Origin: Candidatus Woesearchaeota archaeon
GTDB lineage: Archaea; Nanobdellota; Nanobdellia; Woesearchaeales; JBJKQO01
Assembly (NCBI GenBank): GCA_046705145.1
Contig: JBJKQO010000027.1
Location: forward strand, 14,852 to 78,851
DNA length: 64,000 nucleotides
Direction of reading: 5' to 3'
The notes under the pieces were generated by a model. It was not told the DNA's origin. It saw only the letters and a program-made list of their open reading frames with translations, and searched no databases. Every line of letters starts with the position of its first letter. Within the stretch, counting starts at the first letter, position 1. The translations under genes and the position numbers were made by a program. Shown here piece after piece: positions 22,079-63,499 of this stretch.

Positions 22079-22100
22079 CCTACGATATCCTCTTCTTATT

Positions 22101-25336: not shown

Positions 25337-25496
25337 TATATTAAGGCCGACGAGGGGGGTCCCTTAAAAAAGCTGAGGCTTTTTTTAGTCCGCCAATCAT
25401 AATTGGCGACACTTACGGGGAAGTCGGCCATGAAAGACTAAGAAGCACAAGCGAACCTGATGCTACCCAAGGCGACAGCCGAGTTTTTCAACAGTG
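25289..25496 (+). mobile_element. Family-2 MITE-like element, copy 3
   Basis: Perfect 13-bp outer inverted repeat CACTGTTGAAAAA. Inner ends TTAGGTAGCATCAATTTGTGAGCTTC and GCACAAGCGAACCTGATGCTACC. Internal GGGGGGTCCC and GTCCGCCAATCATAATTGGCGAC palindrome. Confidence 0.6.
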
Positions 25497-25534
25497 TCCC
25501 CCCATATAAGAAACCTTTTTATACAAAGTAGGTT

Positions 25535-26539: not shown

Positions 26540-26638
26540 CTAAATCGGCGTTTTTTGCTTGATTTGATTCATAATATATATAAATAAACAGAGAATCTGT
26601 ATTTGATGCATATAAAAAGTGTTTTAAGGGGATGATAG

Positions 26639-33504: not shown

Positions 33505-34255
33505 TTTTTCTCCTTCTTCTCATGAAAGGCTGCTCAAAGAAAAGCCTTATGACAGTCCATGCTACGCCTGCCGCGTTCTTCCAACGGAACATCGCGCTGG
33601 TCCCGTGGTCTCTTAGCTGGTACATGGGGTATTGCTTGTATGAGTATCCCATCTTCAGGAGCTGTATCATGACTTCTGCCTGCATGGCAAAGCTGTCTGT
33701 CGTCATCTTCACTTTCCTTATTGCATCTGTCCTTGTTATCGTAAGCCCGCAGTAATACCTTATCCTTTTCAGGAAGAGCAGATTAAGGCTCCATGTGAAT
33801 ATTATGGATATTATGTCCCTGTAAAAGGGTCTTGGTATCTTGAACTTGTAGTAGCTTGTCACGATGTCTGCCTCTCCTGTGTGCCAGAAAAGGTTTGTCA
33901 TAGACCTTATGACTATGGGGTTCTCTTCCATGTCCCCTGGTATCCAACAGTAATATTCTTTTGATGCAAGCTTAACTCCTGCCCTGTAATTGTAGCCTAA
34001 CCCTCTGTTTCTTTGGTTGTGGACGACCCTTACTTTTCGGTTCTCTTTTGCGAGCTTGTCTGCTATCTCGCCTGTCTTGTCTGTGCTGCAGTCGTTGAAT
34101 ATGAGTATCTCATAATCCTCAAATATCTCGCTAAGTATCCTGTTGACAGGCCGGACTGAGTTCTCAAGATGCTTTTCCTCGTTGTATGCAGGCATCATTA
34201 TGGTTATAGATGCTTTTAGCTTCTTTCTCTTTGTCTTCTGTTCTCTGTTTTTCAT
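33488..34255 (-). CDS. glycosyltransferase family 2 (dolichyl-phosphate sugar synthase-like)
   Basis: ITIMMPAYNEE ... ILIFNDCSTDKT GT-A motifs. Confidence 0.8.
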   Translation of the reverse strand: MKNREQKTKRKKLKASITIMMPAYNEEKHLENSVRPVNRILSEIFEDYEILIFNDCSTDKTGEIADKLAKENRKVRVVHNQRNRGLGYNYRAGVKLASKEYYCWIPGDMEENPIVIRSMTNLFWHTGEADIVTSYYKFKIPRPFYRDIISIIFTWSLNLLFLKRIRYYCGLTITRTDAIRKVKMTTDSFAMQAEVMIQLLKMGYSYKQYPMYQLRDHGTSAMFRWKNAAGVAWTVIRLFFEQPFMRRRRKNVRSR

Positions 34256-34266
34256 CGTGCCTCACT

Positions 34267-35334
34267 TCATATGAAATTGACGTGCTCAGGAGGGTTTTTC
34301 AGGCTGTGAAGGTACCTGTTTATAGGGTCAAGCCTGCAGTTCTCGCGGCATTCTTTTGTGCCTTTGCAGTCAAGCTTCCTTATGACCTCTTCCCTTTTTT
34401 TGCCGAGCCATATCTCAGAAAAGGAGTTGTCATAAAGGTTGCCGTAGTAGAATTCCTTGTTATCGTAGAATAGGTTGCATGGGATTATGTTTCCTTCTGC
34501 GTCTATGAGGGCGAAGAAAGGAAGCCCGTAGCATTTCTCGTATGGTGCTTCTGATTTTAGCTTTTCCATGGTGTCAAGCCTGAATACTGCCTTGAAATCT
34601 TTAGTGCTTGTCGCCTCGACCTTTGGTTTCAGTGACTTGAGGTTGTCATAGTCAAGCTTGAACCTTTTTGAGCTTAATGGGTGCTGTGAGTAGGGCTTTA
34701 CGACAAGGTAGTCTGCTCCTGCTTCCCTGACCTTTTCGGCAAGCATGACAACTTCTGATGAGTTGTCGTTTATCAGGAGGACCTGCGTGCCTATCTTGAC
34801 CTTCAGGTTGTTCTTTCTTTTTATCTCTGCGGCATCCTTTATGTTTTGCATGAGCTTTCCAAGATCTGCCTCTTTTGTGCCGTGTATCTTTGCGTATGTC
34901 TCGGGTGTTGCTGCGTCCACGCTGAATTTCACCCAGGACATATGTGGAAGCGTCTTTTCTGCAATGCTCTTGGTGAAAAGGACTCCGTTTGTTGTAAGAG
35001 CTACGTCCATGCCGTGCTTTTTTGCGTGCTCTACAAACAATGAGAAATCCTTATGAAGAGTCGGCTCGCCTTCTCCTCCGAACATGATAGACCTGATTCC
35101 GTGAGATGCCATGTCTGTAAGAGCGTCAAGCATCACTTTTGTGTCTATGAACTTGCCCTTGTAGCCTGTGAAGTCAAGGGCGCAGAATATGCAGCGGTGG
35201 TTGCATGCAGAAGTTATCCCAAGCTCTAGGTAAATAGGAAATATCTTGTCTCCTTTAAGCCAAAGGTCTACCCTGCCTGGGTGGTAGTTCAGCTTGTGCG
35301 TGTCAAGTTTAAGCTCATCTTCCAATGTTATCAC
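34267..35334 (-). CDS. radical SAM protein with a C-terminal SPASM domain
   Basis: CNHRCIFC (CxxxCxxC) cluster, and a C-terminal Cys-rich CYGLP..C..C..C region. Confidence 0.8.
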   Translation of the reverse strand: MITLEDELKLDTHKLNYHPGRVDLWLKGDKIFPIYLELGITSACNHRCIFCALDFTGYKGKFIDTKVMLDALTDMASHGIRSIMFGGEGEPTLHKDFSLFVEHAKKHGMDVALTTNGVLFTKSIAEKTLPHMSWVKFSVDAATPETYAKIHGTKEADLGKLMQNIKDAAEIKRKNNLKVKIGTQVLLINDNSSEVVMLAEKVREAGADYLVVKPYSQHPLSSKRFKLDYDNLKSLKPKVEATSTKDFKAVFRLDTMEKLKSEAPYEKCYGLPFFALIDAEGNIIPCNLFYDNKEFYYGNLYDNSFSEIWLGKKREEVIRKLDCKGTKECRENCRLDPINRYLHSLKNPPEHVNFI

Positions 35335-35537
35335 ATCTTAATTTTATTGAAAATTTCGCATTTGCGGAATTTTCTTTCGGGATGATGGTTCCCCCTCAAT
35401 TTAGTGCGAAATTTTCAATCCCGCAAAGTCGGTAACAATAGGGCGAGCATATTAATAATTAACGACTTTGCGTTATGCTTTGATTAAGGACTTAACTTTC
35501 TTTTATATAGTTTTCCCATAGCTTCCAGCTTCTGTGA

Positions 35538-37502
35538 CTAGTTCACCTTGAACAGCATGACAGCTCCATTTTGCATTACAGGCTCAAACAGCTTTGAGTC
35601 AGCCATACGCCCTACAAATATGTTGGTCTCATTGACCCCAAGTTCCTGGGTGTCTCTAGTGCTGATTATCATGTACTCATAGCCTTTCGCCTTAAGTGAT
35701 GAAGCAAGCTGTTCAGGCGGTAGTGAGTATGCTGTTTTCTGGAGGCTTTTGACATCATCGCACCATTGGCATATGTACTTGTCAAATCCAAGTACATATG
35801 CTCCGCTTGATAGTGAGAACACTCCTGTGTTTGCCGGAAGGGAATAAAGCTGCGTAAATCCTGCAAGCTCATCATATGATGTCCAGCCAACTCCTGGAGG
35901 CCACTGGGCCCTGTTATACACGAATTTAGGGTAAGTAGAAGTCAGGATGACAAGTGCTATTATCGCTACGACTGTCACTGCTTTTGGTATGCCTACATTT
36001 TTGAGCGAGTCAGCAAGTGCCACAAGGCCGTAGCCTGCAAGGATAGATACTGGTATCGCAAGAAGCATCCAGAACCTGAATGCGAAAAGGCCTACAGGAA
36101 GATGGAAGGTTGCGGAGTTGACGCCGAGAAAAGTGAAAGCAAGCCACAAGAGGGTTATTGCAAGCCACTTGTTCTTTGAGTCAAGAAGCTGCCTGTATTT
36201 TACTGCTGCTATCACCAGGCCGACTATCGCAAGTATGCATATAGCTATGCCTATCCCTATAGGGTTGTTTATCATGTTGTTTGTCCTTGCTACAAAGAAA
36301 TCGCTGAAACTGTATGCCCTTGTTGCAGAGCCGCCTGTCGGGCTGAAAAAAGTCCCTATCCCATCAAGGAAAGATGTTCCTGAAGAGCCTGCGAGCTGCA
36401 CTTCTGATACTCCGGAAAGCCCGTTTCTTCTTATCAGCACAGGAACCCACCATAAAAGGGATATTGCTGCACCTACAGCTCCTGCCACAAGTGAATCCCA
36501 GTGGACCTTCTTGTGAGCAAGTGTCCTTATGAGCCAGTATGCTCCGAGGAAAAACGCGAACTTGATCGATTGTGATGGATGTGTGAGCATTATTGATGCT
36601 ATCGCTATCCCTGCAACATATTTCCACTTCCTGCCCCCATCCATCATCTCAAGAGAGTAAAGTGCTATGAAGAAAAGAGCAGGTATGAGGGCGTGAGCCC
36701 ATATGAAATGGCTAAGGAAACATGGTATCGAAGCGAGGATAAAAGTGGATGCGAGGGCTATCCTTTTGCTCTCGGAAAATCTCATGACAAAAAGATAGAA
36801 GAAAAGAAGGCAAAGCGATATGAGAAGGGCGTTAAAGAACTTCATGGTCCAGTTTATCGAGGGAGATGTCTGGTGCAAGACCCCCATCATCATCTCGTAT
36901 CCTGGCGGGTAGGGGTCAAGGAAGTTTGTGACATATCCTCCTTTTGGTGCGAAAAGGTCCTTTTCTACCGCTATGTATTTCACGCCTATCGCATGAGTCC
37001 AGGGATCATCATCCTCAAAGTAAGGGTAGCTGAACGCTCCGCTTGCATACATGAAAAAGGTTGCTGCAAATATGAGAATGGCCAGCGCAGAATAGATGTT
37101 GCTCTTTGTAAGCTTTATCTTGTCAAGTGTCGGTAAGCTTATCTTGCCTGAGTTCCTTATGAGCCATATCGATGGATATATCAAGCTTGCTGCAAGAAAT
37201 ATCCTCCAGTCGATAGGCAGCCTAAGGAAATTTATCGCTGCTCCCAGCACTATGAACGCGCTGATGCCGAGGCCGACACGCATGACTATCCTCTCAAATG
37301 CGTTTTTTGATTCATTCAGGAAAGAAGTGATCGTAAAGCCCAGTCCATAGGTGTATATGAAAAAGAGAATAATAGTTATCCAGCTCGCCAATGCATGCAC
37401 CCCCTTTGATATCTTATAAGCTGGATAATCTGTCAATATTATATAAATCTTATTGATTTGGGAAGCTTCTGTTGAAGGACTTTGAAAAGCTGTGCTTTTC
37501 AA
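35538..37502 (-). CDS. large polytopic membrane protein, putative GT-C-like glycosyltransferase/polymerase
   Basis: About 14 TM helices, an acidic loop YFEDDDPWTH, no WWDYG AglB motif. The first ~10 codons lie inside family-2 element copy 4, so the true start is uncertain. Confidence 0.4.
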   Translation of the reverse strand: MKSTAFQSPSTEASQINKIYIILTDYPAYKISKGVHALASWITIILFFIYTYGLGFTITSFLNESKNAFERIVMRVGLGISAFIVLGAAINFLRLPIDWRIFLAASLIYPSIWLIRNSGKISLPTLDKIKLTKSNIYSALAILIFAATFFMYASGAFSYPYFEDDDPWTHAIGVKYIAVEKDLFAPKGGYVTNFLDPYPPGYEMMMGVLHQTSPSINWTMKFFNALLISLCLLFFYLFVMRFSESKRIALASTFILASIPCFLSHFIWAHALIPALFFIALYSLEMMDGGRKWKYVAGIAIASIMLTHPSQSIKFAFFLGAYWLIRTLAHKKVHWDSLVAGAVGAAISLLWWVPVLIRRNGLSGVSEVQLAGSSGTSFLDGIGTFFSPTGGSATRAYSFSDFFVARTNNMINNPIGIGIAICILAIVGLVIAAVKYRQLLDSKNKWLAITLLWLAFTFLGVNSATFHLPVGLFAFRFWMLLAIPVSILAGYGLVALADSLKNVGIPKAVTVVAIIALVILTSTYPKFVYNRAQWPPGVGWTSYDELAGFTQLYSLPANTGVFSLSSGAYVLGFDKYICQWCDDVKSLQKTAYSLPPEQLASSLKAKGYEYMIISTRDTQELGVNETNIFVGRMADSKLFEPVMQNGAVMLFKVN

Positions 37503-37590
37503 AGGGACAACCCCTTAGCTCTGAGTTCGTTTAACAGAAGGAGCATCGTAAATTGATGCTACCTTCACTTTCAACAGCAGCTATTAAGCG
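37473..37590 (-). mobile_element. Family-2 MITE-like element, copy 4 (short, inverted)
   Basis: Reverse complement begins CTGTTGAAAGTGAAGGTAGCATCAATTTACGATGCTCC and ends CTTCAACAGAAGCTTCC. Internal palindrome TTGAAAAGCACAGCTTTTCAA. Confidence 0.4.
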
Positions 37591-37645
37591 CTAAACACAT
37601 AAAAATACAGCAAATTTTATTAATGACCGATAACAAATATGGTTT

Positions 37646-38794
37646 ATGACACCAAAAAGGGGCCAGATAACTGTCTTTATCATGATGGGGATCATCATCG
37701 TCGCAGCTACCGGACTGTTCTTCTTCATGAAATCCAACAGCCAAAAAGTCACAGATGACACGTTAGAGCAGACCTATAACGACGACCTCGACCTTGCAAT
37801 GCTAAAGGAACATGTTGAAATGTGTATTAAGGGAACAGCTGTCGAAGGGATCTCTTCTTTAAGCAGAAACGGAGGTTACTACAAGCTGCCACCTGTTCCA
37901 GAAGGGCTGGATGGATGGTCCGCATATTATTACCTTAAAGGCAATGTCAATGTTCCTGATGTGGCCACCATAGAAAAGCAGATGCAGCTTTATATCGATG
38001 ATTTTCTGCCTTTCTGCCTCCAAGAGATAAACATAAGCGGATACGAGATAATCTCTTCAGATCCAAGATCAGAAGTTATCATCGGAAAAGACGATATGAT
38101 AATCAAATTAAAATCTCCTGCATCCATACAATCAGGAGACAAAAAAAAGACTATTCGCAACTTTCAGGTCTCAGTCAGCAACAAGCCTATCATCCCTGCG
38201 CTTGCGGCAGCAAAAGCGATAACTGAAAATACAGTAGAAAACCTGCCTTATGTATGCATAAGCTGCGTCTCAGAGATAGCGTTTGGCCAGGGTTTCAATG
38301 CCAGCATAACCTCAAGCAATAACACGCTCTATTTCGAGATAGGTAATTATTCAACTGCCAGCGAGACCATATTTGACTACCTTGCTAACCTATCTTCAGG
38401 ACAAGATTATGTAGATGAAAATGTGGGGGAGGTTGAAGATGGCAGCAGCGGGCTTGCCATAGAAAAAGAAGCTTATCTTTTCTCGTTCGCAATAGATGTA
38501 AGGGGGCATAATTCGCCTCAGGAAGACCTTTATAACAAGGAGATAAAGATAATGGATATCCCTGATCTTGTAGCTTATGTGGGCGAGACAAAAACGTATC
38601 AGATAAACGCAACAGGAAATGACCTTTCTTACGAATCCTTCACGTATGGTGTGGATATTGACAAGAATGGTCTTCTGAGCTATACCCCTTTAGAAGAGGA
38701 TCTTGGCAATCATACTGCATTCATAGCTGTAAGCGATGATGATGGAAATTATGACCAAAAAGAGTTCATGCTTGTGGTGAGAAATAAAGAATGA
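37646..38794 (+). CDS. secreted/membrane-anchored protein with a C-terminal cadherin-like (putative Ig) domain; candidate glycoprotein
   Basis: N-terminal TM/signal. At least 6 N-x-S/T sequons (NISG, NASIT, NNTL, NYST, NLSS, NATG, NHTA). C-terminal ~90 aa resembles dystroglycan-type cadherin-like folds. Confidence 0.45.
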   Translation: MTPKRGQITVFIMMGIIIVAATGLFFFMKSNSQKVTDDTLEQTYNDDLDLAMLKEHVEMCIKGTAVEGISSLSRNGGYYKLPPVPEGLDGWSAYYYLKGNVNVPDVATIEKQMQLYIDDFLPFCLQEINISGYEIISSDPRSEVIIGKDDMIIKLKSPASIQSGDKKKTIRNFQVSVSNKPIIPALAAAKAITENTVENLPYVCISCVSEIAFGQGFNASITSSNNTLYFEIGNYSTASETIFDYLANLSSGQDYVDENVGEVEDGSSGLAIEKEAYLFSFAIDVRGHNSPQEDLYNKEIKIMDIPDLVAYVGETKTYQINATGNDLSYESFTYGVDIDKNGLLSYTPLEEDLGNHTAFIAVSDDDGNYDQKEFMLVVRNKE

Positions 38795-40764
38795 ATAACA
38801 AGCCAATCATGATAGCGGCATTATGCGTATTCTTCATAATGATATCTGCATCGATAGCATTTTGCTGTGGAGAAGAAGGCGGAGACCCATGCCCTGCACC
38901 GGCAGGAAATGATGGAGAAGGGGCTGATGGAGGGACGCAGCCTGCTGCTCAGACAAACCAGGACCAAAGCACTGAAGAAGGGCTCTTAAACAGGTTAGAG
39001 AAAGGGGAGGTTGATACGACTGCTGATAACGTAGTTAAACACTTCAAGGTATTTAGAGATAAATTCGGAAAAAAGTATGATATTGACTTTGCAAATATTG
39101 ATAAGGATTATGCAGCAGCTAAAGGGCTTATTAAGGTGCAGGGAACAACGATAATAACTAAAAAAGGCTCATTTGATGTAGGGCAATATAAGAACAAGGG
39201 CGTTGTTATTGCAGTAGGAAAAGATGGGTCTGTCATGATGGTAAGAGGGGTCGTGTTAACTGACAAGAACAATAAAGTTATAGGTATGGACAATGTCAAG
39301 CTCGGAAAAAACATAAGGATAGAAAGCCAGTTCGGCCCTCAATCTATAGATGGCGGTACAGTGACAAGCGACGGAAAGATAATAGTCAAGGCTGGAGACA
39401 GGGCTTTTGTTACTGGCCATGGAGTCATCGCAGACAAAGGCAAGGATATTATTATCAGGCTTGAACCTCCGACAGGAAATATAGAAAAGCCATCTGTATT
39501 CTTTTATACAACAAGAGGGGGGGAAGCGCATGTTGACATATATGGCCAGGCTGTTGTCAAGACTCCTGACAAGAGGGTGATCAGGACAACAAGCGATGAT
39601 TCTGAGTTTGGGATAACTTATAAAAGCCATCTTACTGGAGAATACAAGTCCTCCTATAAAATCAAAGGAGATGCTGAGATAAACGGAGGTATCATCAAAT
39701 TTAAGGATGGCAAGATGCTTGTTGATAACCAGATATTTAACGGAGGCAAAGGCACCTCAGAAAAGCTGTGGCAGTACCACAATTTTGATTTTGAATATCA
39801 GGGCAAAGATGAAGCAGGAAATGACAAGATATATACTGGCAGGATAACAGGAACATCAACAGAAAAGCTAAGCTATGAGTACAGCGGACACCTCACCCTA
39901 TTCACGAAAGATCTTTCAGAAGATGATATGAAACTCATACAGAATTATCCTTACAGGCCTTACAGGTGCGGCAACACAGACTGCACAGGAGCGAAAAGGT
40001 CTATCTGGCCTGGAATGACATCGATCCAGCAAAGGTTCATGTATGATCATGTAAGAAACGATCTAGGGCCTCAAGTGAGGGCTATGATAATAGAACAGAT
40101 GAAAACGCTTAAGACTTCAAGAATTTGGGATGATGATGTTAATTTGATTGAGGAAGCGTATTGGCGTGCTGTTTTTCTCGAGTCCAAAGGAGACCCCAGG
40201 GCTTATGGATATTCTAACAGCCCTGACAGAGGCATGTCGCAGCTAAATAAGGCTGCTGTAAGCGGCAAGGCATATGCTGCATTGGACGGCCCTATAGATC
40301 CTTTTGACCTAAACCAAAATATGAAAAGGGGGATCCAGATGATGATGATAAAGATGGACATCGCATTGAAAAGTTGCTCAGGATGCAGTGATGACCTTAT
40401 AATAAGGAAGACCCTAGCTTTCTACAATGGAAGAAGAAACGCTTACAACCCTTACTCAAACACGGCGATGTCCTTGCCACCAATAAAATACTCACCCCAA
40501 TCAACAAGTGATCCTAACACCCTCCCTATAGGGACTATCATACCAGGATACACACCTTCAACAGGGACTATAACTAGAACCTCTCCCATCACTATCAACA
40601 AAGACATTCCTGAAGAAGTAGAGATCGAGTACACCAATGAGGAAGGGGAGAAAGTGACAGAGACAGTTAAATGCAAGCAGTATGCTGATATCTATACAGG
40701 AGGATGCAAGGATTGTGGAGAGGAAGACTTTTTCTGCAGGGCATGCTTATGCAAAAAAGATTAG
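38791..40764 (+). CDS. secreted protein with a lysozyme-like / lytic-transglycosylase-like segment and a Cys-rich C-terminus
   Basis: Signal peptide. AVFLESKGDPRAYGYSNSPDRGMSQLN resembles the SLT E-S ... GLMQ catalytic motif. C-terminal CKQYADIYTGGCKDCGEEDFFCRACLC. Confidence 0.4.
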   Translation: MNNKPIMIAALCVFFIMISASIAFCCGEEGGDPCPAPAGNDGEGADGGTQPAAQTNQDQSTEEGLLNRLEKGEVDTTADNVVKHFKVFRDKFGKKYDIDFANIDKDYAAAKGLIKVQGTTIITKKGSFDVGQYKNKGVVIAVGKDGSVMMVRGVVLTDKNNKVIGMDNVKLGKNIRIESQFGPQSIDGGTVTSDGKIIVKAGDRAFVTGHGVIADKGKDIIIRLEPPTGNIEKPSVFFYTTRGGEAHVDIYGQAVVKTPDKRVIRTTSDDSEFGITYKSHLTGEYKSSYKIKGDAEINGGIIKFKDGKMLVDNQIFNGGKGTSEKLWQYHNFDFEYQGKDEAGNDKIYTGRITGTSTEKLSYEYSGHLTLFTKDLSEDDMKLIQNYPYRPYRCGNTDCTGAKRSIWPGMTSIQQRFMYDHVRNDLGPQVRAMIIEQMKTLKTSRIWDDDVNLIEEAYWRAVFLESKGDPRAYGYSNSPDRGMSQLNKAAVSGKAYAALDGPIDPFDLNQNMKRGIQMMMIKMDIALKSCSGCSDDLIIRKTLAFYNGRRNAYNPYSNTAMSLPPIKYSPQSTSDPNTLPIGTIIPGYTPSTGTITRTSPITINKDIPEEVEIEYTNEEGEKVTETVKCKQYADIYTGGCKDCGEEDFFCRACLCKKD

Positions 40765-40824
40765 TGCCTGAATAATCTCCTTTTTCCACAATCCTTAAAT
40801 AATTCTTTGTAATCTGTGGGGGTT

Positions 40825-40932
40825 ATGAAAACCAAAGAGAAGCTTGTGGTGCTGTGGATGCTGGGCGTGCTTGCGGCTTATCTTGTCTTTGAGGCTATAA
40901 ACATGCTTTCTTATGCCGGGGTGATCGGATGA
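40825..40932 (+). CDS. putative 35-aa single-TM leader/micro-protein
   Basis: MKTKEKLVVLWMLGVLAAYLVFEAINMLSYAGVIG. Its stop overlaps the next gene's start in an ATGA arrangement. Confidence 0.2.
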   Translation: MKTKEKLVVLWMLGVLAAYLVFEAINMLSYAGVIG

Positions 40933-42761
40933 TCGCTTTCCTTTGGCTTGCTCTTTATGCTCTGGCGTTCTTCGGGTCTGGAAGGGTCATCCTTTCAAGG
41001 ATCAGGTTCAGGAGCATGCCTGAGGAGTTCGTGTTCTCTTCTGCTGTCGGGATCGTGCTGTTCTCGGTTTTTGCGATGATAATGTGCGCTTTAAAGCTGG
41101 TCTATAAGGCATATTTCATATTCTTTGCTGTAGTGATGCTTCTTGCGGGAGCAGGCAGGATACGGTCTTTCCTAAGGGCTGCTGCAGATGTGTCTCGCAG
41201 GAACAAGAGAAAGCTGCTGCGTCCAGGCGTTTCAAACATACTCTTGTGCTTTATCCTTGTGCTTGCTGCGGCAAACCTGATGCTTGCAGACACTCCCCCT
41301 ATAGAATGGGATTCCATCAGGTATCATCTTGCCGACCCAAAGGTATACGTGCAAAATCACGGGTTTGTCAATCTTCCAAGCGAATGGCACTCAAACATGC
41401 CTTTCTTCACAGAGATGATATACCTTACCGGGCTTCTCATGCAGGGAGCAGAGCTTGCAAAGCTTTTCGCTTGCCTCATGGGGCTGCTTCTTGTGCTTAT
41501 GATATACTCGTTTGCATCTCAAAGGTTCTCAAGAGAAGTGTCGATGGCACTTGCCGCGATATTCATATCCATCCCCATAATCAGCCAGTTCATGTCCACT
41601 GCAAAAAATGACATCCCTCTTGCATTTTTCGCTTTTTTGGCAGTGGCCTCCTATATATTCTGGGCGGAAAGCTCAGATAAAAGGTGGCTGTTGGTCTCTT
41701 CTGTAATGGCAGGTGCTGCTGCTGCGATAAAGACGACAGGGATAGCTGTCTCTCTGATAATATGCCTCCTGATATTTTGGAATTTTATACTGAAGAAAGA
41801 ATATGTTTCTGCATTCCTGAGACCCTCAATATACTTTGTCGTTTCCTTCGTCTTCCTGGCTCCATGGCTCATAAAGAGTCTTATCTACACAGGAAATCCT
41901 GTCTGGCCCCTTGCTTATTCTGTCTTTGGCGGACAGTACTGGAACCCAGGCCTTGCAGAGATACTTAAGTATCTTGGGGAATATGGATACGGCACTTCGC
42001 TTCTTGACTTTGTGCTTCTTCCCTTTAGGATAACTTTTTATCCAAATGCATTTGCGACAATCATGGGCATAAGCCCTGTGTTCCTTATGTTCATACCTCT
42101 TGTGTTCATGTATAAGAGGGATAAGTTTATCAATATCCTTCTCTGGTCTTCTTTTCTTTTGCTTGTCTTCTGGTTCGTTACATCACAGCAGCTTAGGTTC
42201 ATAATACCTGTCCTTCCTTTGGCCTTGATAGCGATAGGAAAGCCGATCACAGAACTTGATAAGGCTAGGATGACAAGAACTGTTGCCGCTGCAGCGATAA
42301 TGATGATCCTCATGGTAAACTCTGCTCTTTTTTGCGCTGTCAACATGAAAAAGGCTCCTATGGCAGTTGGGCTGGAAGATAAAGATAAATACATATCAAG
42401 TTATGTCGCAGAATACGATGCGGCAATGTTTGCAAACCTTAACCTGCAAGGGAGCAGGATACTTCTTGCCGGTTATTCACGCCATTATTATTTTGACGTG
42501 GATTATGTCATAGGAGATCCCAGAACGCAGGGGTATATCGATTATGACTTATTGGAAGACGATCCTGAAAAGCTTTTTCTGCTGCTAAAAAAGGATAGTA
42601 TCACCCACATCCTGATAAACAAGAAGCAGAACTACCGTGATGACAAGTTTACGCTTTCAGATTACGGAGCTGGATTTGATGGCCTTATAGGGAGATTCAC
42701 AGAAAAGCATGGAAAACTGGTCTATGACGAATCTGACGTGAAGATATATGAGATAGTATGA
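40929..42761 (+). CDS. GT-C fold membrane glycosyltransferase (ArnT/PMT-like)
   Basis: 610 aa with about 12 TM helices, and a DSIRYH acidic loop after TM1. Confidence 0.5.
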   Translation: MIAFLWLALYALAFFGSGRVILSRIRFRSMPEEFVFSSAVGIVLFSVFAMIMCALKLVYKAYFIFFAVVMLLAGAGRIRSFLRAAADVSRRNKRKLLRPGVSNILLCFILVLAAANLMLADTPPIEWDSIRYHLADPKVYVQNHGFVNLPSEWHSNMPFFTEMIYLTGLLMQGAELAKLFACLMGLLLVLMIYSFASQRFSREVSMALAAIFISIPIISQFMSTAKNDIPLAFFAFLAVASYIFWAESSDKRWLLVSSVMAGAAAAIKTTGIAVSLIICLLIFWNFILKKEYVSAFLRPSIYFVVSFVFLAPWLIKSLIYTGNPVWPLAYSVFGGQYWNPGLAEILKYLGEYGYGTSLLDFVLLPFRITFYPNAFATIMGISPVFLMFIPLVFMYKRDKFINILLWSSFLLLVFWFVTSQQLRFIIPVLPLALIAIGKPITELDKARMTRTVAAAAIMMILMVNSALFCAVNMKKAPMAVGLEDKDKYISSYVAEYDAAMFANLNLQGSRILLAGYSRHYYFDVDYVIGDPRTQGYIDYDLLEDDPEKLFLLLKKDSITHILINKKQNYRDDKFTLSDYGAGFDGLIGRFTEKHGKLVYDESDVKIYEIV

Positions 42762-42816
42762 ATGTTTCTCTTTAAGTTCCATAATATTTAAAAGCCATTA
42801 GGTATTCCAGTAACAT

Positions 42817-44271
42817 ATGAATATATTGGTGATCAACCCCCCCAGCCCCGAAAAATCATACATGAACCGGGACCTTATGGGGGGTATGGGAGTGAAGGTA
42901 GGGTTTGGCAAGAGCCTTAAGACTAAGCTGATAAGCAAGCTAAAGAGTAACCTAGTCAGGATACCTGTGATGCAGCTCGTGTACGTTGCGACAATACTTC
43001 AAAAGAATCATAATGTCAGGGTGATTGACGCTGCAAACCAGAACATGTCTGTTTCTGATATTCTTCCAGTCGTGAAGGGATTCAGGCCGGATTACGTGTT
43101 TATGGCAGTATCTTCCTCAGGCGTGATATTTGAGAGGGATGTTGTTGCAAAAAAGATAAAGAAAGCAGCGCCAAAAAGCGTGATCGTGACTATAGGTGAC
43201 ACAATCCCTTTCAAGCCTTCTCTTCTCAGGGACCCTTTTGATGTCGCGATAATGGGGGAGGCTGAAAGGCCTTCAGAAAAGATTGCGGATGGGGAGAAGC
43301 TGTCAAGGATCAAAGGGATAATCTACAGGAAAGGGAAGATGGTCATAAAGAACAAAAAAGAGGATCTTATGGGCCCAAAAGATCTGGATAACCTTCCGTT
43401 CCCGGAATGGTCTCTTTTTGATTACAGAAGCTATTCATATTTTCCAATGATAATGAAAAAGCCAGTTGTTACCGTGCTTTCTTCAAGAGGATGTCCTTTC
43501 GGATGCATATACTGCTCTTACAGCAAGAACATGGGGCTTAGGTGGAGAGCAAGGTCTGCAGACAATGTTGTTGATGAGATAGCAAGAAACGTGAAAAAAT
43601 ACGGCATTAAGGGGGTAATATTTCGGGACCCTCTTTTTTCAGCTGACATGAAAAGAGTTGAGAGGATATGCGAAGAGATATTAAAGAGAAAGATAAAAGT
43701 TTCATGGTCTTGTGAGACCCGGCCTGAACTGCTTACAAAAAGCCTGCTGCAAAAGATGAGAAAAGCAGGATGCAGCGGGATCAACCTGGGTATTGAAAGC
43801 ATATCGCCTGATGTTCTCAAGCAGGTCGGGAGAAAAGAAGTGGACCCAAAAAGCATACTTAATATCGTAACTTTTGCGGAAAAGCTCGACATAAGGACCT
43901 CCTGTTTTTTCATGATGGGCCTGCCTGGATCTACAAGGAAGTCCATATCAGATGATATAAGGTTTAGCCGGCAGCTTAACGCAAGTCACGTCGAGTATAA
44001 GATAACGACCCCATTTCCGGGAACAGAGCTATACGACAGGGCAAAGAAGAACGGATGGATCAAGTCTGCAAGATATGAGGATCTGGGGGGCTATTCCGCT
44101 ACGATGCAGGTTTCAGATGATATCTCTCCAGGGTACCTGGAAAATGTTTGCAACCAGGCGTTTAAAGGATATTACTCAAGACCAAAGTACATTATCAGGG
44201 AGCTCACGAGAAAGGATATTTTCGCCAAGATCTCATTTATTGCAAGGGGGTTGCTTAAGTCAATAAGGTAA
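42817..44271 (+). CDS. B12-binding-domain radical SAM protein
   Basis: N-terminal cobalamin-binding Rossmann-like region. CPFGCIYC (CxxxCxxC) radical-SAM cluster. Confidence 0.8.
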   Translation: MNILVINPPSPEKSYMNRDLMGGMGVKVGFGKSLKTKLISKLKSNLVRIPVMQLVYVATILQKNHNVRVIDAANQNMSVSDILPVVKGFRPDYVFMAVSSSGVIFERDVVAKKIKKAAPKSVIVTIGDTIPFKPSLLRDPFDVAIMGEAERPSEKIADGEKLSRIKGIIYRKGKMVIKNKKEDLMGPKDLDNLPFPEWSLFDYRSYSYFPMIMKKPVVTVLSSRGCPFGCIYCSYSKNMGLRWRARSADNVVDEIARNVKKYGIKGVIFRDPLFSADMKRVERICEEILKRKIKVSWSCETRPELLTKSLLQKMRKAGCSGINLGIESISPDVLKQVGRKEVDPKSILNIVTFAEKLDIRTSCFFMMGLPGSTRKSISDDIRFSRQLNASHVEYKITTPFPGTELYDRAKKNGWIKSARYEDLGGYSATMQVSDDISPGYLENVCNQAFKGYYSRPKYIIRELTRKDIFAKISFIARGLLKSIR

Positions 44272-44279
44272 GCTGCAAG

Positions 44280-45212
44280 ATGATACTCATAACAGGGATA
44301 ACTGGATTCATAGGAAAAAACCTTGCCGAAAGGCTTGTATCAGAAAATATAAGGTTTAGTTGCCTCGTCAGGCCTTCAAGCGATAAAAGTTTCATAGGCT
44401 ACCTGAAAAAAAATGGTGTTAAGCTCTATTATGGCGCGCTTGAAGACAAAAAAAGGCTGGATGAGGCGATCAAAGGCAAGGAATCAGTGATCCATCTGGC
44501 CGCAGCAACCTCCGCTAGGATGGATGATATGTTAAGGATCAACCTGCAGGGCACAAAAAACGTAGTTGAAAGCTGCAAGAAGGGGGGTTGCAATAGGATA
44601 ATATTCATAAGCTCTTATCTTGCAGAAAAAAGGTTTGCGGACCACAGCGCCTATGCAAAGAGCAAGCTTCTGTCAGAAGAGTACATAAAAAAAAGCGGGC
44701 TTAGTTATGTCATACTTAAACCGTCATTGGTGTACGGCAAAAAAGACAGTAAGAATGTTCAAAAGCTTGCAGAGATGCTAAAAAGTCTTCCTGTCATGCC
44801 TGTGATAGGGGATGGAAGGTACAAGATTCAACCCGTGCATGTCAGTGATGTTGTTGATGTGATTGTAAGCTGCATCAAGGATAAGGGCATAAATAATAAG
44901 ACTTACTATGTGGCTGGAGATGAGATAATCACGTTTAATGCGCTTATAAGAAGGATAGCAGATGAGCTTAAGGTAAAGAGGGTGATCGTGCACCTGCCTA
45001 AATGTGTTGTTAAGGTATGCGCGAGGTTGGCCTCTTCAGTAGGATTACGGACACCCCTAGATGATGATGGGATAAGCATAATAGACAAAGACAAATTTTG
45101 CGATACGAGCCTGACAAAAAAAGATCTGTCTTTCAGTCCTATAAGTTTAGGCAAAGGATTAAAAACAATGGATCTTCGAAGCCTAAAGAAGAAGAGGGTA
45201 TTGAAAAGATGA
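44280..45212 (+). CDS. NAD(P)-binding epimerase/dehydratase-family (NmrA-like) protein
   Basis: ILITGITGFIGKNL Rossmann motif; YAKSK (YxxxK). Confidence 0.7.
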   Translation: MILITGITGFIGKNLAERLVSENIRFSCLVRPSSDKSFIGYLKKNGVKLYYGALEDKKRLDEAIKGKESVIHLAAATSARMDDMLRINLQGTKNVVESCKKGGCNRIIFISSYLAEKRFADHSAYAKSKLLSEEYIKKSGLSYVILKPSLVYGKKDSKNVQKLAEMLKSLPVMPVIGDGRYKIQPVHVSDVVDVIVSCIKDKGINNKTYYVAGDEIITFNALIRRIADELKVKRVIVHLPKCVVKVCARLASSVGLRTPLDDDGISIIDKDKFCDTSLTKKDLSFSPISLGKGLKTMDLRSLKKKRVLKR

Positions 45213-57554: not shown

Positions 57555-58052
57555 ATGGATTCAAAGGTTGATGAGCTAAAACGCGCATATTCCCTGCTTG
57601 ACTCATTCGTGTCAAGGACAGGAGGGATGAGCCAGAAGGCTCTTGACCACGCACATCTTCTTGCAAGCATAGCTTCCCGCGCACATGAGAAGGACCTGAA
57701 GAGCTGGTCTGAGAAGCTTATAGAGCAGATCGAGAAGGGAAACTATGAAAATTCTATGAAGATAATCGAGGCTCTTAAGCAGAAGACTGCTGAGATGATC
57801 AAGGCTGCTGAGTTTAAGAATAAGGAAAGTGTCTCGCTTCCTGAGATGCAGCTTTTTGAGCTTGTCAGGTGCAGGAAGTGCGGTGTCATGATACCTTCTG
57901 ATTCTAAGTTCTGCGGCAAGTGCAAGGCGCCGCACCAAAAGGAGCAGGCTCATAAGAGCATGCTTGCGAAGAAGAAATGTTTCAAGTGCAGGAAAGTGAT
58001 ACCGTCAGAATTCTCGTTCTGCTGTTACTGCGGCGAAAAGCAGATAGGATGA
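57555..58052 (+). CDS. double zinc-ribbon protein, hypothetical
   Basis: C-terminal CRKCG..CGKC and CFKCR..CCYCG motifs. Confidence 0.45.
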   Translation: MDSKVDELKRAYSLLDSFVSRTGGMSQKALDHAHLLASIASRAHEKDLKSWSEKLIEQIEKGNYENSMKIIEALKQKTAEMIKAAEFKNKESVSLPEMQLFELVRCRKCGVMIPSDSKFCGKCKAPHQKEQAHKSMLAKKKCFKCRKVIPSEFSFCCYCGEKQIG

Positions 58053-58145: not shown

Positions 58146-58604
58146 ATGAAATACAAGTACTCTCTGATCTTGGGAAGCATCGCTTTCATCCTATCCGTAA
58201 TCGTGTTCTTCTGGTCAAGCTCTATTGTTGGCTATATCCTGAAAGTCTTGTTTGTAAGTGGCTACTTCTTCCTGCTCGGATTGTCAATAGATAAGAAAAA
58301 AAGGATCTGGCTGGTTGTGATTATAGGGGTTATTATTGCATTATTAATCCTGTTTTTCATATTGACGTTCGGGTTCAAGCACACTGCAGAGTGTTTCCCG
58401 TTCGTGTATAAAAACGTATTCACAGGTGAATGCGAACTAAAATGTGGCGGCTTATCTTCCAAACATCCTATCTGGTACTGGAAGCATGTGCCTGATGATC
58501 AAGATTGTTTTGATGAGGCTGTAGAAAAGGCGTGCAATAATGATCCAGAATGTATAAAAAAAGCAAAAGAAGAAAGAATGATTATGCATTTTAGAATACA
58601 ATAA
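58146..58604 (+). CDS. membrane protein with a Cys-rich extracytoplasmic C-terminal domain, hypothetical
   Basis: 3 TM helices, then 8 Cys in ~70 aa. AT-rich gene. Confidence 0.4.
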   Translation: MKYKYSLILGSIAFILSVIVFFWSSSIVGYILKVLFVSGYFFLLGLSIDKKKRIWLVVIIGVIIALLILFFILTFGFKHTAECFPFVYKNVFTGECELKCGGLSSKHPIWYWKHVPDDQDCFDEAVEKACNNDPECIKKAKEERMIMHFRIQ

Positions 58605-59761: not shown

Positions 59762-60061
59762 TCACATGATCTCTTCTATCTCTATGTCATCTGAATCATC
59801 TGATCCAGTGCCGTCTCTTAAGACAAGATACTCATATGCCTTGTTCAGCACGAGCGCTGCCTTTGGCAGGTCGTTCACCCTAAGAGAATTTGTGGACTTC
59901 CATGTTCCATCCTTGTCTTTGTAGCGCCTCTGGATGGATATTGTCCTATACTCGCTTGGCTCGCCTGTCTTGGCAAGCCCTTTATTTTTCCACACTGTAG
60001 CGTTTATCGCTCCAGTGCTAAATTTTTTTTCTGGTCTGTTGTCTTCTGACACTCTGACCAC
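59762..60061 (-). CDS. PC4/YdbC-like putative ssDNA-binding protein
   Basis: 99 aa. TVWKNKG..RTISIQRRYKDKDGTWKSTNSLRVNDLPKAALVLNKAYEYL pattern resembles the PC4/YdbC fold. Acidic C-terminus. Confidence 0.35.
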   Translation of the reverse strand: MVRVSEDNRPEKKFSTGAINATVWKNKGLAKTGEPSEYRTISIQRRYKDKDGTWKSTNSLRVNDLPKAALVLNKAYEYLVLRDGTGSDDSDDIEIEEIM

Positions 60062-61147: not shown

Positions 61148-61360
61148 TTATTTTAGAATTAGATATAAACTAAAACCCATTAAAAGAACCCCCCCTATTA
61201 TCCTTAATATTTGTTGGATAAGGATATATCTTTCTCTTTTATGTTTTGAAAGTTTTTTTGATTTCACTACAGGGTCAAAAGCTAAAACAAGAGGTTTACT
61301 AAAAAAGATTATGGCTAATCCGATTATACCCAATATCCAAGGAAAATATCCATATTCCAT
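61148..61360 (-). CDS. small two-TM membrane protein, candidate immunity protein for the upstream RHS toxin
   Basis: 70 aa from the internal ATG (MEYGYFPWILGIIGLAIIFF). Immediately downstream of the RHS C-terminal toxin domain. AT-rich. Confidence 0.3.
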   Translation of the reverse strand: MEYGYFPWILGIIGLAIIFFSKPLVLAFDPVVKSKKLSKHKRERYILIQQILRIIGGVLLMGFSLYLILK

Positions 61361-61388
61361 TATTATTACCTTAAAATTTAGTTGATAT

Positions 61389-62639
61389 TTATTTTTTACT
61401 ATCTTTTGTATTGTCTTCATTCGAATCTTCATCATTCGGTTTAGATGGGTTATATACTGTACCAGGAGTACCATATACCGGAGTACCATCTTCCGTATAT
61501 CCTACTATCTCAACATTGTTCCAAGTTCCCCCACCTGTTTTTCTTATTCTTATGTTTTGGGCATTTTCTTTTATTGAAAATTGATTAAGATTTCCTGAGT
61601 TATCGATAAAAAGGGCCTTTTTTATTTTTGTTTCTTCTTTTTCTTTCCTTTTCTCTTCTTCATAATCATATAAAATATCGAATCCAGCAGATGTGAATGA
61701 CTGTGTTCTTAAACCTTCTTTGAATAGTTTCTCTAAGAAAGGTTTTGCGTACTGCCCCAAAGGCCCTGGAATAGGATTTGCAGTTACTAAATCAAAAACA
61801 TCCAATACTAAAATGGCCTTATTTACATTATTTGGATTTTCCTTGTAATCTATAATATCAATCCCAATTGATGCTATGTCGGCGGCACTTTCAACAATCA
61901 TATAAGCTGCATATAAACTTACTAACTCATGCCCATTTTCATCCACATTCTTATAAGAGTTCCCTCTCTCAAACATATACCTGTTGAGAGATTGAGGGTC
62001 GTAAACATTTGGGATGACCGTGTCTGGTTGAGTAAATAAAGCCCATTCCGGTTTATACTTCCTAAAGTTGAAGTCTGTGTCTCCCACGACCGTGTCATGT
62101 TCTTTTGCCTCGTATCCATAACGTGAAGCCCTTCCTCCTTCCAGAACCTGTCCCATTGGGCTGTAAGAAGTGTTCTCCACAACTGTTCCGGATTCGTCGG
62201 TTACAACTGTATTAGACCCTAGGTTGTCAGATGCAATAAAATACTTGCTCCCATCTGGATTCTTCTGAGCTACCAATTGCCCTTCTTGATAGATATATGT
62301 TGTGTCAAAGGTGCCTGAGCTGTTGATGACCCTTACATAGTTTTTGTTGAGGTAGATGACTGTTTCCTTTAGCGCTCCGCCATCATAAGTCTTTTTGATC
62401 AGCACGCGTTCTTCTGTTGGATGATAGATGTATTCCTGCAAAAGGTTAGCTGGAACAGCACTACTACCATTATAGACCTTGCTTAATTGGTTCAGGCTAT
62501 TATATACCCTGAACTTACCATCTCCAGTCACAAGGTTACCGTTAGCATCATAAGTCAGGTTCAGCTCAGTAGCAAAGCACACTGGCACTAAAACTATCAA
62601 AAAGCAAGATAAGAGCACAATGCTCCGTATGACAAACAT
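61389..62639 (-). CDS. secreted RHS/YD-repeat protein with an RHS core and a variable C-terminal toxin-like domain
   Basis: Signal peptide MFVIRSIVLLSCFLIVLVPVCFA. YD repeats (YDANGNL, YIYQEGQL, TSYSPMGQ). RHS core signature RYGYEAKEHDTVVGDTDFNFRKYKPEWALFTQPD...NVYDPQSLNRYMFERGNSYKNVDENG. About 180 aa of unique C-terminus. Confidence 0.7.
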   Translation of the reverse strand: MFVIRSIVLLSCFLIVLVPVCFATELNLTYDANGNLVTGDGKFRVYNSLNQLSKVYNGSSAVPANLLQEYIYHPTEERVLIKKTYDGGALKETVIYLNKNYVRVINSSGTFDTTYIYQEGQLVAQKNPDGSKYFIASDNLGSNTVVTDESGTVVENTSYSPMGQVLEGGRASRYGYEAKEHDTVVGDTDFNFRKYKPEWALFTQPDTVIPNVYDPQSLNRYMFERGNSYKNVDENGHELVSLYAAYMIVESAADIASIGIDIIDYKENPNNVNKAILVLDVFDLVTANPIPGPLGQYAKPFLEKLFKEGLRTQSFTSAGFDILYDYEEEKRKEKEETKIKKALFIDNSGNLNQFSIKENAQNIRIRKTGGGTWNNVEIVGYTEDGTPVYGTPGTVYNPSKPNDEDSNEDNTKDSKK

Positions 62640-62746
62640 ATTCCTAATAGGACACACCCCCTTAAGAAAAAAAACAAAATAACAAGTATATAAAATGTTA
62701 GGCCCCACTTGAATCAAGTAGTAAAAATTCAAAAAAAACAATATCC

Positions 62747-63499
62747 TCAATACAGTTTCATCACTTTTCTCAGCAGGAGCGAGAATATCATCGAGAATAT
62801 TATGTAGGTTCCGAGCCATCCTGGCTGCCAGCCAAGTATGCTTAGTGCTCCAAATGGCTTGGATTTCTCATAAGATATCGTGATGCTCTTAAACGAGTTC
62901 TTGTAGCGTTCTTCCACCTTGCCGTATTTTTCTGCATCTACCTTCAGCTCTTTTTGGGCGAGATCTGAGTTATGCTTAAGATCAAGCAGGTATGTTCCGG
63001 AGTCTGCCGAAAGCGTCCAGTATACAGTGTTGTCTGATATCTCTTTTTCTGCATCAGAGATTATGGTCACGCCCTCAGGCACTGTTATCTTGACAGTCCC
63101 TACCTCGCCTGATCTCATGTTTGCGATGACGTTGAATTCCTGTCCTGGCTGGATCGGCTCGTATGCTATGTTTGCCTGCAGCCAGCCGAATATGAGTATT
63201 ATAGGGAGAAAGGTAAAAAGTGTGGATTTAAAGCTCTGCTTCATGTATTTCATGTTTGCCTGCATTATCTTCTGCTGGACCTTCATAGCCTTTTCAGGCT
63301 GGGTCCTGAGCTCTTTTGCCTTCTTCTGCAGGTCTTTCATCTCGTCTTTGAGCTGCTTCATCATAGTCTGGTCAGTGGTATACTTGTAGATTATGGTTAT
63401 TATCAATGCTATGAAGAAAGATATTATGATCACTGCTGCTGCTAGCGGAAGCCTAAAAAGCGGTCCGAGCACCGGATTAAGTATGTCATTTAGTACCAT
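62747..63499 (-). CDS. DUF106-like membrane protein (archaeal YidC/Oxa1/EMC3-type insertase fold) with an inserted extracytoplasmic domain
   Basis: TM1, then YKYTTDQ plus a Lys/Gln/Met-rich coiled coil, TM2 (FLPIILIFGWLQ), a ~100-aa insertion, then TM3. Confidence 0.5.
   Translation of the reverse strand: MVLNDILNPVLGPLFRLPLAAAVIIISFFIALIITIIYKYTTDQTMMKQLKDEMKDLQKKAKELRTQPEKAMKVQQKIMQANMKYMKQSFKSTLFTFLPIILIFGWLQANIAYEPIQPGQEFNVIANMRSGEVGTVKITVPEGVTIISDAEKEISDNTVYWTLSADSGTYLLDLKHNSDLAQKELKVDAEKYGKVEERYKNSFKSITISYEKSKPFGALSILGWQPGWLGTYIIFSMIFSLLLRKVMKLY

Follow-up and report, generated by a model that had tools for sequence, protein, structure and literature searches.

A compact archaeal RHS-core protein with a low-GC tail cassette: a candidate end piece of a split RHS/Tc-type polymorphic toxin

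The window analysed here, a stretch of 64,000 nucleotides from contig JBJKQO010000027.1 of a Candidatus Woesearchaeota assembly (GCA_046705145.1), carries on its minus strand a gene for a compact rearrangement hotspot (RHS) protein, followed by a short open reading frame (ORF) for a putative membrane protein. All features of this locus given below lie on that strand. The longest RHS reading frame, 61389-62819, has 476 open codons, and the ATG at 62639 yields a 416-aa protein. This start, with MFVIRSIVLLSCFLIVLVPVCFA running into TELNL, agrees with the N-termini of the homologues, and the stop codon lies at 61389-61391. The protein is composed of a signal peptide, about 135 residues of YD (tyrosine–aspartate) repeats, an RHS core and a 179-residue tail. 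A 70-aa ORF begins 28 nt after the stop and is followed by a metallo-β-lactamase (MBL)-fold gene. The window holds only one core-like sequence. An earlier note, made by reading the letters alone, had described the locus as a secreted RHS toxin-like module with a candidate immunity gene behind it.

The predicted signal peptide occupies residues 1-23 (62571-62639), MFVIRSIVLLSCFLIVLVPVCFA before TE, as judged from hydropathy, the structural model and the family consensus. Its n-region is short and holds a single Arg, the hydrophobic core spans 15 residues, and positions -3/-1 are Cys/Ala. The segment reaches Kyte-Doolittle 12-mer means of 2.2-3.4 and is modelled as a helix spanning residues 2-25. 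A23 is at least 90% conserved, and the consensus in a 120-sequence family alignment is LPxxFA/xEL, the slash marking the predicted cut. Residues 24-158 (62166-62570) form the YD/RHS-repeat β-sheet. In an AlphaFold model of the 416-aa protein built on 120 homologues, residues 1-200 have a predicted local distance difference test (pLDDT) score >90, and the antiparallel strands make up a YD-type β-sheet. The RHS repeat-associated core follows at residues 159-237 (61929-62165) and ends in D233-E-N-G-H237. The NCBIfam model TIGR03696 (Rhs_assc_core) matches exactly these residues over model positions 1-76 of 76 (E 4e-10, 40 bits; curated cut-off 32.5 bits). The earlier note had recognised the core by eye from RYGYEAKEHD, FRKYKPEWALFTQPD and NVYDPQSLNRYMFERGNSYKNVDENG, all of which are found in the 416-aa protein, and had named failure of hidden Markov model (HMM) searches as one result that would sink the idea; the TIGR03696 score removes that objection. 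On the same protein, the Pfam models RHS_repeat (16.4, cut-off 22) and TEN_YD-shell (19.3, cut-off 50) stay below their thresholds, so support for the YD-repeat region comes from the core model, from the homologues and from structure prediction, and not from Pfam.

Structural comparison of the modelled YD sheet with Foldseek retrieved the shells of teneurin, the Rhs proteins of type VI secretion systems (T6SS), TcB-TcC and SGS1, with E values of 1e-10 to 1e-7 over about 200 aligned residues. TM-scores are 0.37-0.40 when normalised on the query and 0.06-0.25 on the target shells, and the aligned residues cover 6-25% of known shells, short of a closed cocoon able to hold a toxin. As modelled, the sheet is a shell fragment that would make up roughly between a fifth and a quarter of the whole cocoon. 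When the family profile is aligned with the cores of SGS1, teneurins, TccC3 and YenC2, a QPD motif falls on the first catalytic Asp and DxxGH on DPxG[LQ]; the best matches in PDB are SGS1 (E 6e-13) and teneurin-2 (E 2e-9). D206 (codon 62022-62024) and D233 (codon 61941-61943) thus occupy the positions of the first and second catalytic Asp of the Rhs autoprotease. D206 is invariant among 120 relatives, and D233, G236 and H237 are at least 90% conserved. Canonical Rhs autoproteases carry the motif DPxG-x18/19-DPxG[L], with the two Asp residues 22-23 positions apart, and cut after the fifth residue of the second element; in Tse5, D1141 and D1164 are the two aspartates and the chain is cut after L1168, four residues beyond the second Asp (PMC10684867). 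By analogy, the predicted cleavage site in the window protein would lie between H237 and E238, where conservation and GC content both change.

The 179-residue tail (61392-61928) is built as a mosaic: two modules that recur in relatives, with a charged linker between them. Module A, residues 238-305 (61725-61928), is an amphipathic helical hairpin common to P0007, P0009, P0030, P0095, P0127 and an L009 copy (P numbers denote homologous proteins, L numbers loci of relatives), and Y246, E250, D254, N273, D280, P291 and G295 are invariant among this sharing set. Its first helix contains several acidic residues and reaches a Kyte-Doolittle mean of only 1.39. The linker, residues 306-337 (EEEKRKEKEETKIKK; 61629-61724), is modelled as a helix and has low conservation and low pLDDT. 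Module B, residues 338-400 (61440-61628), contains GGG...VEIVGYTEDGTPVYGTPG; it is predicted as a small five-stranded β module with pLDDT 81-90 in a tail-only model, and is shared with P0013 (E 5e-11), P0030, P0102, P0018, P0128 and an orphan cassette of L022. The translation closes with an acidic/basic low-complexity stretch, residues 401-416 (61392-61439), with pLDDT <50. The two modules combine differently from relative to relative.

Pfam searches with the whole tail and with each module returned no match, and module B had no match to a family or fold. Exhaustive HMMER searching found only 8 tail homologues at E ≤1e-3 among 1.84 billion representatives, and 3 of the 8 belong to the same RHS family. 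A metagenome scan with the tail alone found no relative, and one with alignment A4 led only to the contig of P0127. The earlier picture of some 180 residues beyond the core without recognisable similarity is borne out as far as described families are concerned, but the tail is not an unstructured stranger: both of its modules recur in relatives. Some repeat proteins weakly resemble module B; Pfam identifies PEGA in P0125 and YHYH/SPOR in P0126, and nothing useful in P0129. The SPOR-ended P0126 (748 aa) contains about a dozen repeats of V-I-G-Y-x3-G-x-P-[IV]-[FY]-G-x-P-G, which resemble the module-B motif VGYTEDGTPVYGTPG.

The 70-aa ORF (61148-61360) encodes two hydrophobic, predicted transmembrane (TM) segments by hydropathy, TM1 at about residues 6-29 and TM2 at about 45-69, separated by a basic loop with 7 K/R. 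A Shine-Dalgarno-like AGGT (61368-61371) stands in the 28-nt gap, 7 nt upstream of its ATG. An alternative gene call from an upstream start at 61420 would give 90 aa. An ORF of at least 70 codons arose in 53 of 5000 shuffles (1.1%) of the 333-nt gap, so a reading frame of this length is unlikely to be there by chance. Among the module-A relatives with a visible downstream region, 5 of 5 have a two-TM ORF of 75-81 aa in the same place (in L087, the start of one). The window ORF has no statistically supported similarity to these, and its membership in a detectable immunity family was considered and dropped after homologue, tblastn, HMM and BLASTP searches came up empty. Position, two-TM architecture, a low GC content shared with the tail and a non-chance length nevertheless make it a candidate cognate immunity or partner protein. 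The two-TM ORF in an AT-rich patch that the earlier note had pointed to is therefore there as described (two hydrophobic segments, 28.6% GC), and its proposed role as immunity gene fits in position, architecture and composition, with no homologue detectable to back it.

Base composition divides the locus at the same point as conservation. The whole window has 43.4% GC. The signal peptide, repeats and core together have 42.8% GC and a GC content at third codon positions (GC3) of 0.45, near the GC3 of 0.49-0.56 in neighbouring genes. The tail drops to 33.1% GC and GC3 0.22, and the small ORF to GC3 0.20. Tail and small ORF together (61148-61928) have 31% GC and GC3 0.20-0.22 and are the window's lowest-GC 750-nt segment. 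The maximum-likelihood change point in GC3 falls after residue 238 (log-likelihood ratio 12.8), one residue from the conservation boundary. The GC of the N-terminal region minus that of the tail is +0.099 in the window and -0.007 +/- 0.042 in 92 relatives (2.5 standard deviations); since the mean difference in these relatives is about zero, the drop is not a general property of RHS tails in the family. On the simplest reading, the tail and the small ORF entered jointly from a lower-GC donor through recombination at the core end, an origin that would also make a single unit of the two. This is the very route by which polymorphic toxins diversify. The N-terminal part, with GC and GC3 near window and neighbour values, suggests long residence. 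So clean a compositional break at the core boundary would be a textbook-quality case of cassette replacement in an archaeon.

The compact gene belongs to a large family. A protein search recovered 444 homologues, nearly all of 350-470 aa; they share 55-69% identity with the query in the first ~240 residues, and beyond these they are unrelated to it. Scanning species-representative genomes gave 169 encoding loci, of which 80 were kept. The window protein itself is a singleton cluster at 90% identity, and its closest relatives, P0003 and P0004, show no synteny with the window. In the 120-sequence alignment, identity per column averages 0.57-0.81 as far as residue 240 and 0.05-0.19 beyond, and the break in conservation comes exactly behind D-x-x-G-H237. 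BLAST sorts the 116 tails into 62 groups, of which 49 are singletons, and 63 of the 116 have a strongly hydrophobic helix directly after DxxGH. A same-strand ORF of at least 40 aa starts within 200 nt of the stop in 97 of 102 RHS copies (median 131 aa), and 71 of these 97 have at least two hydrophobic (TM) segments. Tail and downstream ORF vary together: of 4,371 locus pairs, 39 resemble each other in the downstream ORF, and 32 of these do so in the tail as well (odds ratio 456, p 2e-53), some of the pairs coming from near-identical metagenome-assembled genomes (MAGs) and many being independent.

Two to four RHS/small-ORF pairs frequently stand in tandem in the relatives' loci, and orphan cassettes, 5'-truncated copies consisting of the core end and a tail, are present in L022 (5843-6733 and 7191-7856), L030, L043 and L059. 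A few tails are toxins of known type: P0079 has Tox-REase-7, P0101 colicin D and L080 Ntox35. Variable tails, a co-varying ORF, orphan cassettes and known toxin tails together support polymorphic-toxin logic at the family level, and we hold with confidence that the compact RHS gene behaves as a module of that type. The earlier note had proposed comparing relatives for hypervariability after the core and had accepted that a conserved tail with no variable partner would speak against a toxin; the comparison instead gives a sharp boundary after H237 and partners that change with the tails. Of the additional orphan cassettes it had suggested searching for, those just listed are in relatives, and neither these nor extra RHS copies were found in the 64-kb window. 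In a subset of 600-700-aa members, a Laminin_G_3/concanavalin-like lectin domain separates the RYGYEGKE motif of the RHS core from its DFxFRKY motif (P0005, P0068 at residues 234-381, P0083, P0089, P0100, P0107, P0111, P0112 and P0115).

The family occurs for the most part in MAGs with DPANN labels. Among the 80 loci, 22 are labelled Woesearchaeota and 19 Nanoarchaeota/Nanoarchaeia, with Pacearchaeota, Aenigmatarchaeota and the like also present. A further 26 are labelled 'uncultured Methanosarcinales'; because all come from one third-party annotation (TPA) series and have about 36% GC, like the DPANN-labelled loci, we take this label with caution. The record of L003 (OZ246410.1, 'chromosome 1') is 773,982 bp long and bears the same label, which looks unreliable. 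A few loci carry bacterial labels: L004 and L008 (Gracilibacteria), L071 (Buchananbacteria), L073 (Patescibacteria), and L026 and L076 (TPA records, Nitrospinota and Gammaproteobacteria). Presence of the family in contigs of the candidate phyla radiation (CPR) and other bacteria could reflect transfer between two ultra-small groups, mis-binning or mislabelling.

In the relatives, the compact gene usually has a large companion. Upstream of it in the module-A relatives is a gene for a protein of about 1,900 aa (1,893 or 1,912), overlapping the compact gene by 4 nt. This TcB-like protein has a signal peptide and, by Pfam, SpvB, FG-GAP, TcdB_toxin_midN and RHS repeats, and is without an RHS core; B subunits of Tc toxins have this architecture. 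Of 84 loci, 36 have a TcB-like homologue right beside the first compact gene and 23 have one at another place in the stretch retrieved, whereas 14 with 2.5 kb or more visible upstream have none; the other 11 have too little flank. It is thus nearby in 59 of 73 informative loci, often overlapping the start of the compact gene, with the 4-nt overlap seen in L082, L083 and L086. P0007 and P0009, which share module A with the window, are TcB-linked. L080 is one fused 1,713-aa ORF with FG-GAP, TcdB-midN, RHS, a compact-RHS-like region and Ntox35, and intermediate fusions of 794-950 aa exist. One MAG holds both a TcB-linked locus, L019, and a solitary one, L039, and L090 is likewise a solitary compact RHS locus. 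The TcB-like gene upstream of compact RHS genes is also found in L003, L005, L007, L011, L012, L014, L019 and others, from DPANN-labelled MAGs. In L086 (4323-10004), its RHS repeats are followed by about 490 β-rich residues without a Pfam match, and no TcA-sized gene was seen in that locus, the one examined in full.

Linkage in 59 of 73 loci and fusion in L080 lead us to read the compact protein as a TcC-like end piece, probably a miniature one that contributes the last shell turns, the autoprotease plug and the cargo. This link to a split system probably explains the small size of the 416-aa protein. The compact secreted form pictured in the earlier note thus stands in its size and signal peptide, but such a protein is probably not self-sufficient. 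We propose that an RHS/Tc-type polymorphic toxin has its exchangeable, toxin-bearing end in the 416-aa protein and that the 70-aa membrane protein is the cognate protector, with a probability of roughly 0.6. A joint action with a TcB-like partner, together with an immunity role for the small ORF, seems slightly favoured by the odds.

Under this proposal, the 416-aa protein would be exported by the Sec pathway through its signal peptide, and its roughly ten YD repeats and RHS core would provide a YD shell with its final turns and its plug. Most of this shell would come, in related genomes, from the separately encoded and separately secreted TcB-like protein of about 1,900 aa, with the two parts presumably assembling. 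D206 and D233 would then cut the chain after H237 and free the 179-aa tail. The tail, without an enzyme signature, may act at the membrane or envelope of a target cell, and the two-TM protein, made from the same transcript, would protect the producer there. Tail and partner gene would have been imported as one low-GC cassette by recombination at the core end. The membrane or envelope target is suggested by the helical, enzyme-less tail, by the membrane location of most partners and by the precedent of Tse5.

Several results weigh against this proposal. No recognised toxin domain or fold was found in the window tail. The autoprotease motif is degenerate, with D-T-V-I in place of DPxG, then x22, then D-E-N-G-H, and an Asp spacing of 27 rather than 22-23. 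A homologue search with the 70-aa ORF found only itself; tblastn against the 80 related loci and BLASTP against the partial ORF of L087 gave no match, and an HMM built from four two-TM ORFs behind module-A tails does not recognise it. No TcB-like gene is present in the 64-kb window, which contains no ORF >727 aa and gave no tblastn match. Because separate signal peptides are present on the compact and the TcB-like protein, the cocoon would have to assemble outside the cell, unlike that of bacterial TcB-TcC. Genes in the window for 3-deoxy-D-arabino-heptulosonate 7-phosphate (DAHP) synthase, a methyl-accepting chemotaxis protein, a PAS sensor and transketolase are unlike what is expected of reduced DPANN-labelled genomes. 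Finally, a hydrophobic tail start and a TM partner show no association across the family (odds ratio 0.81, p 0.81), which leaves membrane action of the tail weakly grounded; we regard it as doubtful. The related idea that membrane toxins pair preferentially with membrane immunity proteins was set aside on the same figures, and the membrane target stays a weak suggestion.

The missing TcB-like gene could also mean that the window protein is a self-sufficient toxin exported by Sec, the role of the short YD sheet and of the core being limited to cleavage and presentation of the tail, with no partner needed. Its own signal peptide, the lack of such a gene over 64 kb and in 14 or more related loci where 2.5 kb or more can be seen upstream, the solitary L090 and the constant family size of about 400 aa all point this way. 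The geometry does not: some 200 residues of YD sheet are a small part of a shell, and with TM-scores of 0.06-0.25 on the targets they cannot enclose a 179-aa tail. Nor do the genomes, in which a TcB-like gene is near in 59 of 73 loci, often with the 4-nt overlap, a fused version exists in L080, and the solitary L039 sits in a MAG that also has the TcB-linked L019. We therefore consider self-sufficiency rather unlikely.

The protein could also serve in surface recognition or adhesion and not be a toxin at all, with the YD sheet displayed, the helices as an anchor, the charged tail in the cytoplasm and the small TM protein as membrane partner. Teneurins and SGS1, the closest solved relatives by sequence, are both surface proteins, the downstream partners are mostly membrane proteins, and in 63 of 116 relatives the hydrophobic helix after DxxGH is followed by low-complexity charged tails. 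Yet the part that would be displayed is conserved and the hidden part variable, the opposite of what is expected of a recognition protein, and the first tail helix in the window, with its acidic residues and mean of 1.39, does not favour an anchor. Tails of some relatives are nucleases or RNases, the catalytic aspartates for release are conserved, and orphan cassettes and co-variation of tail and partner are typical of toxin-immunity systems, so a surface role is very unlikely. Last, the gene might be a relic, decaying or silent: an RHS end piece gained by horizontal transfer that no longer functions for want of its partner, the ORF behind it being there by chance. This would account for the solitary position, the foreign low-GC composition, the small ORF without a homologue and the singleton cluster. 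We judge it highly improbable, for the 416-codon frame is intact and keeps the signal peptide, the family-invariant residues and both aspartates; the N-terminal GC and GC3 suggest long residence, TATA-like and Shine-Dalgarno-like elements are present, and a 70-codon ORF appears in only about 1% of shuffles.

The proposed toxin-carrying end piece is of a known kind, the RHS/Tc-type polymorphic toxins, and a distinct variant of it: a split system with a 400-aa C piece that bears a signal peptide, is here solitary and, on our reading, carries a recently imported cassette. We know of no immunity genes in insecticidal Tc loci, and the compact RHS gene followed by a small membrane protein resembles interbacterial toxin-immunity pairs in this respect. 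The likeness to TcC proteins such as TccC3 and YenC2 lies in the RHS repeats, the TIGR03696 core and the hypervariable C-terminus, in the match of the profile and of the TcB-TcC cocoon fold, and in the position of the relatives' compact gene directly behind an SpvB/FG-GAP/TcdB-midN/RHS gene, as in tcB-tcC. An adjoining tcB homologue is lacking within the 64-kb window and present in 59 of 73 related loci; the solitary window copy is reminiscent of the 'orphan' tccC genes away from tcB that are known in Photorhabdus and Yersinia (PMC7861908). Bacterial TcC proteins measure 851-1,050 aa in 97% of cases, and an RhsA region of >400 aa binds TcB (PMC7861908), whereas the window protein has 416 aa in all, with about 135 residues of repeats before the core. 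It also differs in having its own Sec signal peptide and an archaeal host. In Tc toxins, TcC shares one cocoon with TcB and docks with it on a TcA pentamer; no TcA-like gene was seen in L086.

Polymorphic toxins of the TcdB/TcaC type consist of signal peptide, SpvB, integrin-like propeller, RHS and toxin, and are listed for Euryarchaeota; Methanosarcina acetivorans was noted there to have RHS toxins with cassettes and immunity genes (Zhang et al. 2012, PMC3482391). The fused L080 has exactly this architecture, ending in Ntox35. In the split arrangement it is divided between two genes, and the window has only the short C-terminal one with its own signal peptide. Of the N-terminal parts the window protein retains the signal peptide alone, SpvB and propeller being on the separate protein in relatives, and its tail modules are not among the described toxin families. 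Tse5/Tsi5 of the Pseudomonas aeruginosa T6SS (PMC10684867) shares the Rhs core, the two aspartates and a tail of about 16 kDa without an enzyme fold; its cleavage four residues past the second Asp and its cognate immunity gene have a predicted and a candidate counterpart in the window, and it offers a functional analogy for a helical, membrane-active tail. By that analogy, the window tail might form pores. Tse5, however, has a full 40-hairpin cocoon, a PAAR-like N-terminus and T6SS delivery; the shell of the window protein amounts to about a quarter of one, its export signal is of the Sec type and a T6SS context is lacking. Teneurins and mosquito SGS1 are YD-shell proteins of eukaryotes with a bacterial origin. 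They give the best matches in PDB, by sequence as well as by structure, and SGS1 has hydrophobic helices directly after its DPDGQ motif in the alignment. In these animal surface proteins the shells are complete and of giant size (>1,700 aa), with no polymorphic tail cassettes or immunity genes.

To our knowledge, antagonism between archaea is almost unexplored experimentally. In the full-text literature covered, which did not include the survey of Makarova et al. from 2019, we found no description of the compact RHS family or of DPANN TcB-like genes. That survey (mBio 10:e00715-19) is reportedly the main one on archaeal polymorphic toxins and may include genes of GW2011_AR15 (L014). The earlier note's remark that such pairs are barely characterised in archaea holds for experiments, but computational prediction had already been made (PMC3482391). 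If the proposal is right, this would be one of the most widespread archaeal toxin-delivery systems, with hundreds of members, many per genome and mostly in tiny symbiotic DPANN. The 416-aa protein would offer a compact model for how RHS cores release cargo, and the family a large catalogue of small toxin and immunity modules and possibly a handle on DPANN-host or DPANN-DPANN conflict. If it is wrong on the partner or on toxicity, what is left is one more uncharacterised RHS-core protein. A bolder and improbable version has the compact and the ~1,900-aa TcB-like proteins forming an undescribed two-gene, Sec-exported, Tc-like system, mainly of DPANN-labelled MAGs, whose cocoon assembles outside the cell and whose small C piece is exchanged among many cassettes, with the window cassette derived from a low-GC DPANN-like donor and residing in a free-living-type archaeon that maybe hosts DPANN, and with module A and its invariant Y-E-D stripe as a new family of membrane-active toxins against which very small two-TM proteins give protection.

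Upstream of the RHS gene, a TATA-box-like TTTATATA (62687-62694), read from the sequence, stands 47 nt before the ATG at 62639 and is a candidate archaeal promoter for both the RHS gene and the small ORF. The neighbouring gene, 62747-63499 on the minus strand, encodes an EMC3/TMCO1-like membrane insertase homologue of the YidC/Oxa1 superfamily (PF01956, E 1e-17). It carries a C-terminal extension of about 140 residues, and its 3' end is overlapped by the longest RHS reading frame.

The window encodes RadA, archaeal-type phenylalanyl-tRNA synthetase (PheRS) α and β subunits and an archaeal CCA-adding enzyme, which confirm the archaeal origin that the earlier note had assumed. An Rfam scan of the 64 kb gave zero matches. 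Also encoded are TrmB-type regulators, a ROK kinase and large glycosylation clusters. A PAS-domain sensor (6434-8413, minus strand) lies beside a 727-aa methyl-accepting chemotaxis protein (8628-10811, plus strand), DAHP synthase is at 44-1057 and a transketolase subunit at 28755-29531. This gene content suggests a free-living-type archaeon rather than a reduced DPANN genome or symbiont. Two large clusters, 15576-27706 and 32428-45212, contain glycosyltransferases, sugar epimerases/dehydratases, a Wzx-like flippase, radical S-adenosylmethionine (SAM) enzymes and methyltransferases, and look like a surface-glycan biosynthesis island. Between the RadA and MBL-fold genes is a 99-aa ORF (59762-60061, minus strand) without a Pfam match, which contains TISIQRRYKDKDGTWKSTNSLRVNDLPKAALVL and an acidic tail; it may resemble PC4/YdbC-like single-stranded-DNA-binding proteins. 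A 165-aa protein (57555-58052, plus strand) has two C-terminal CxxC...CxxC zinc-ribbon-like motifs, and adjoining it is a 152-aa membrane protein (58146-58604) with a Cys-rich C-terminal region.

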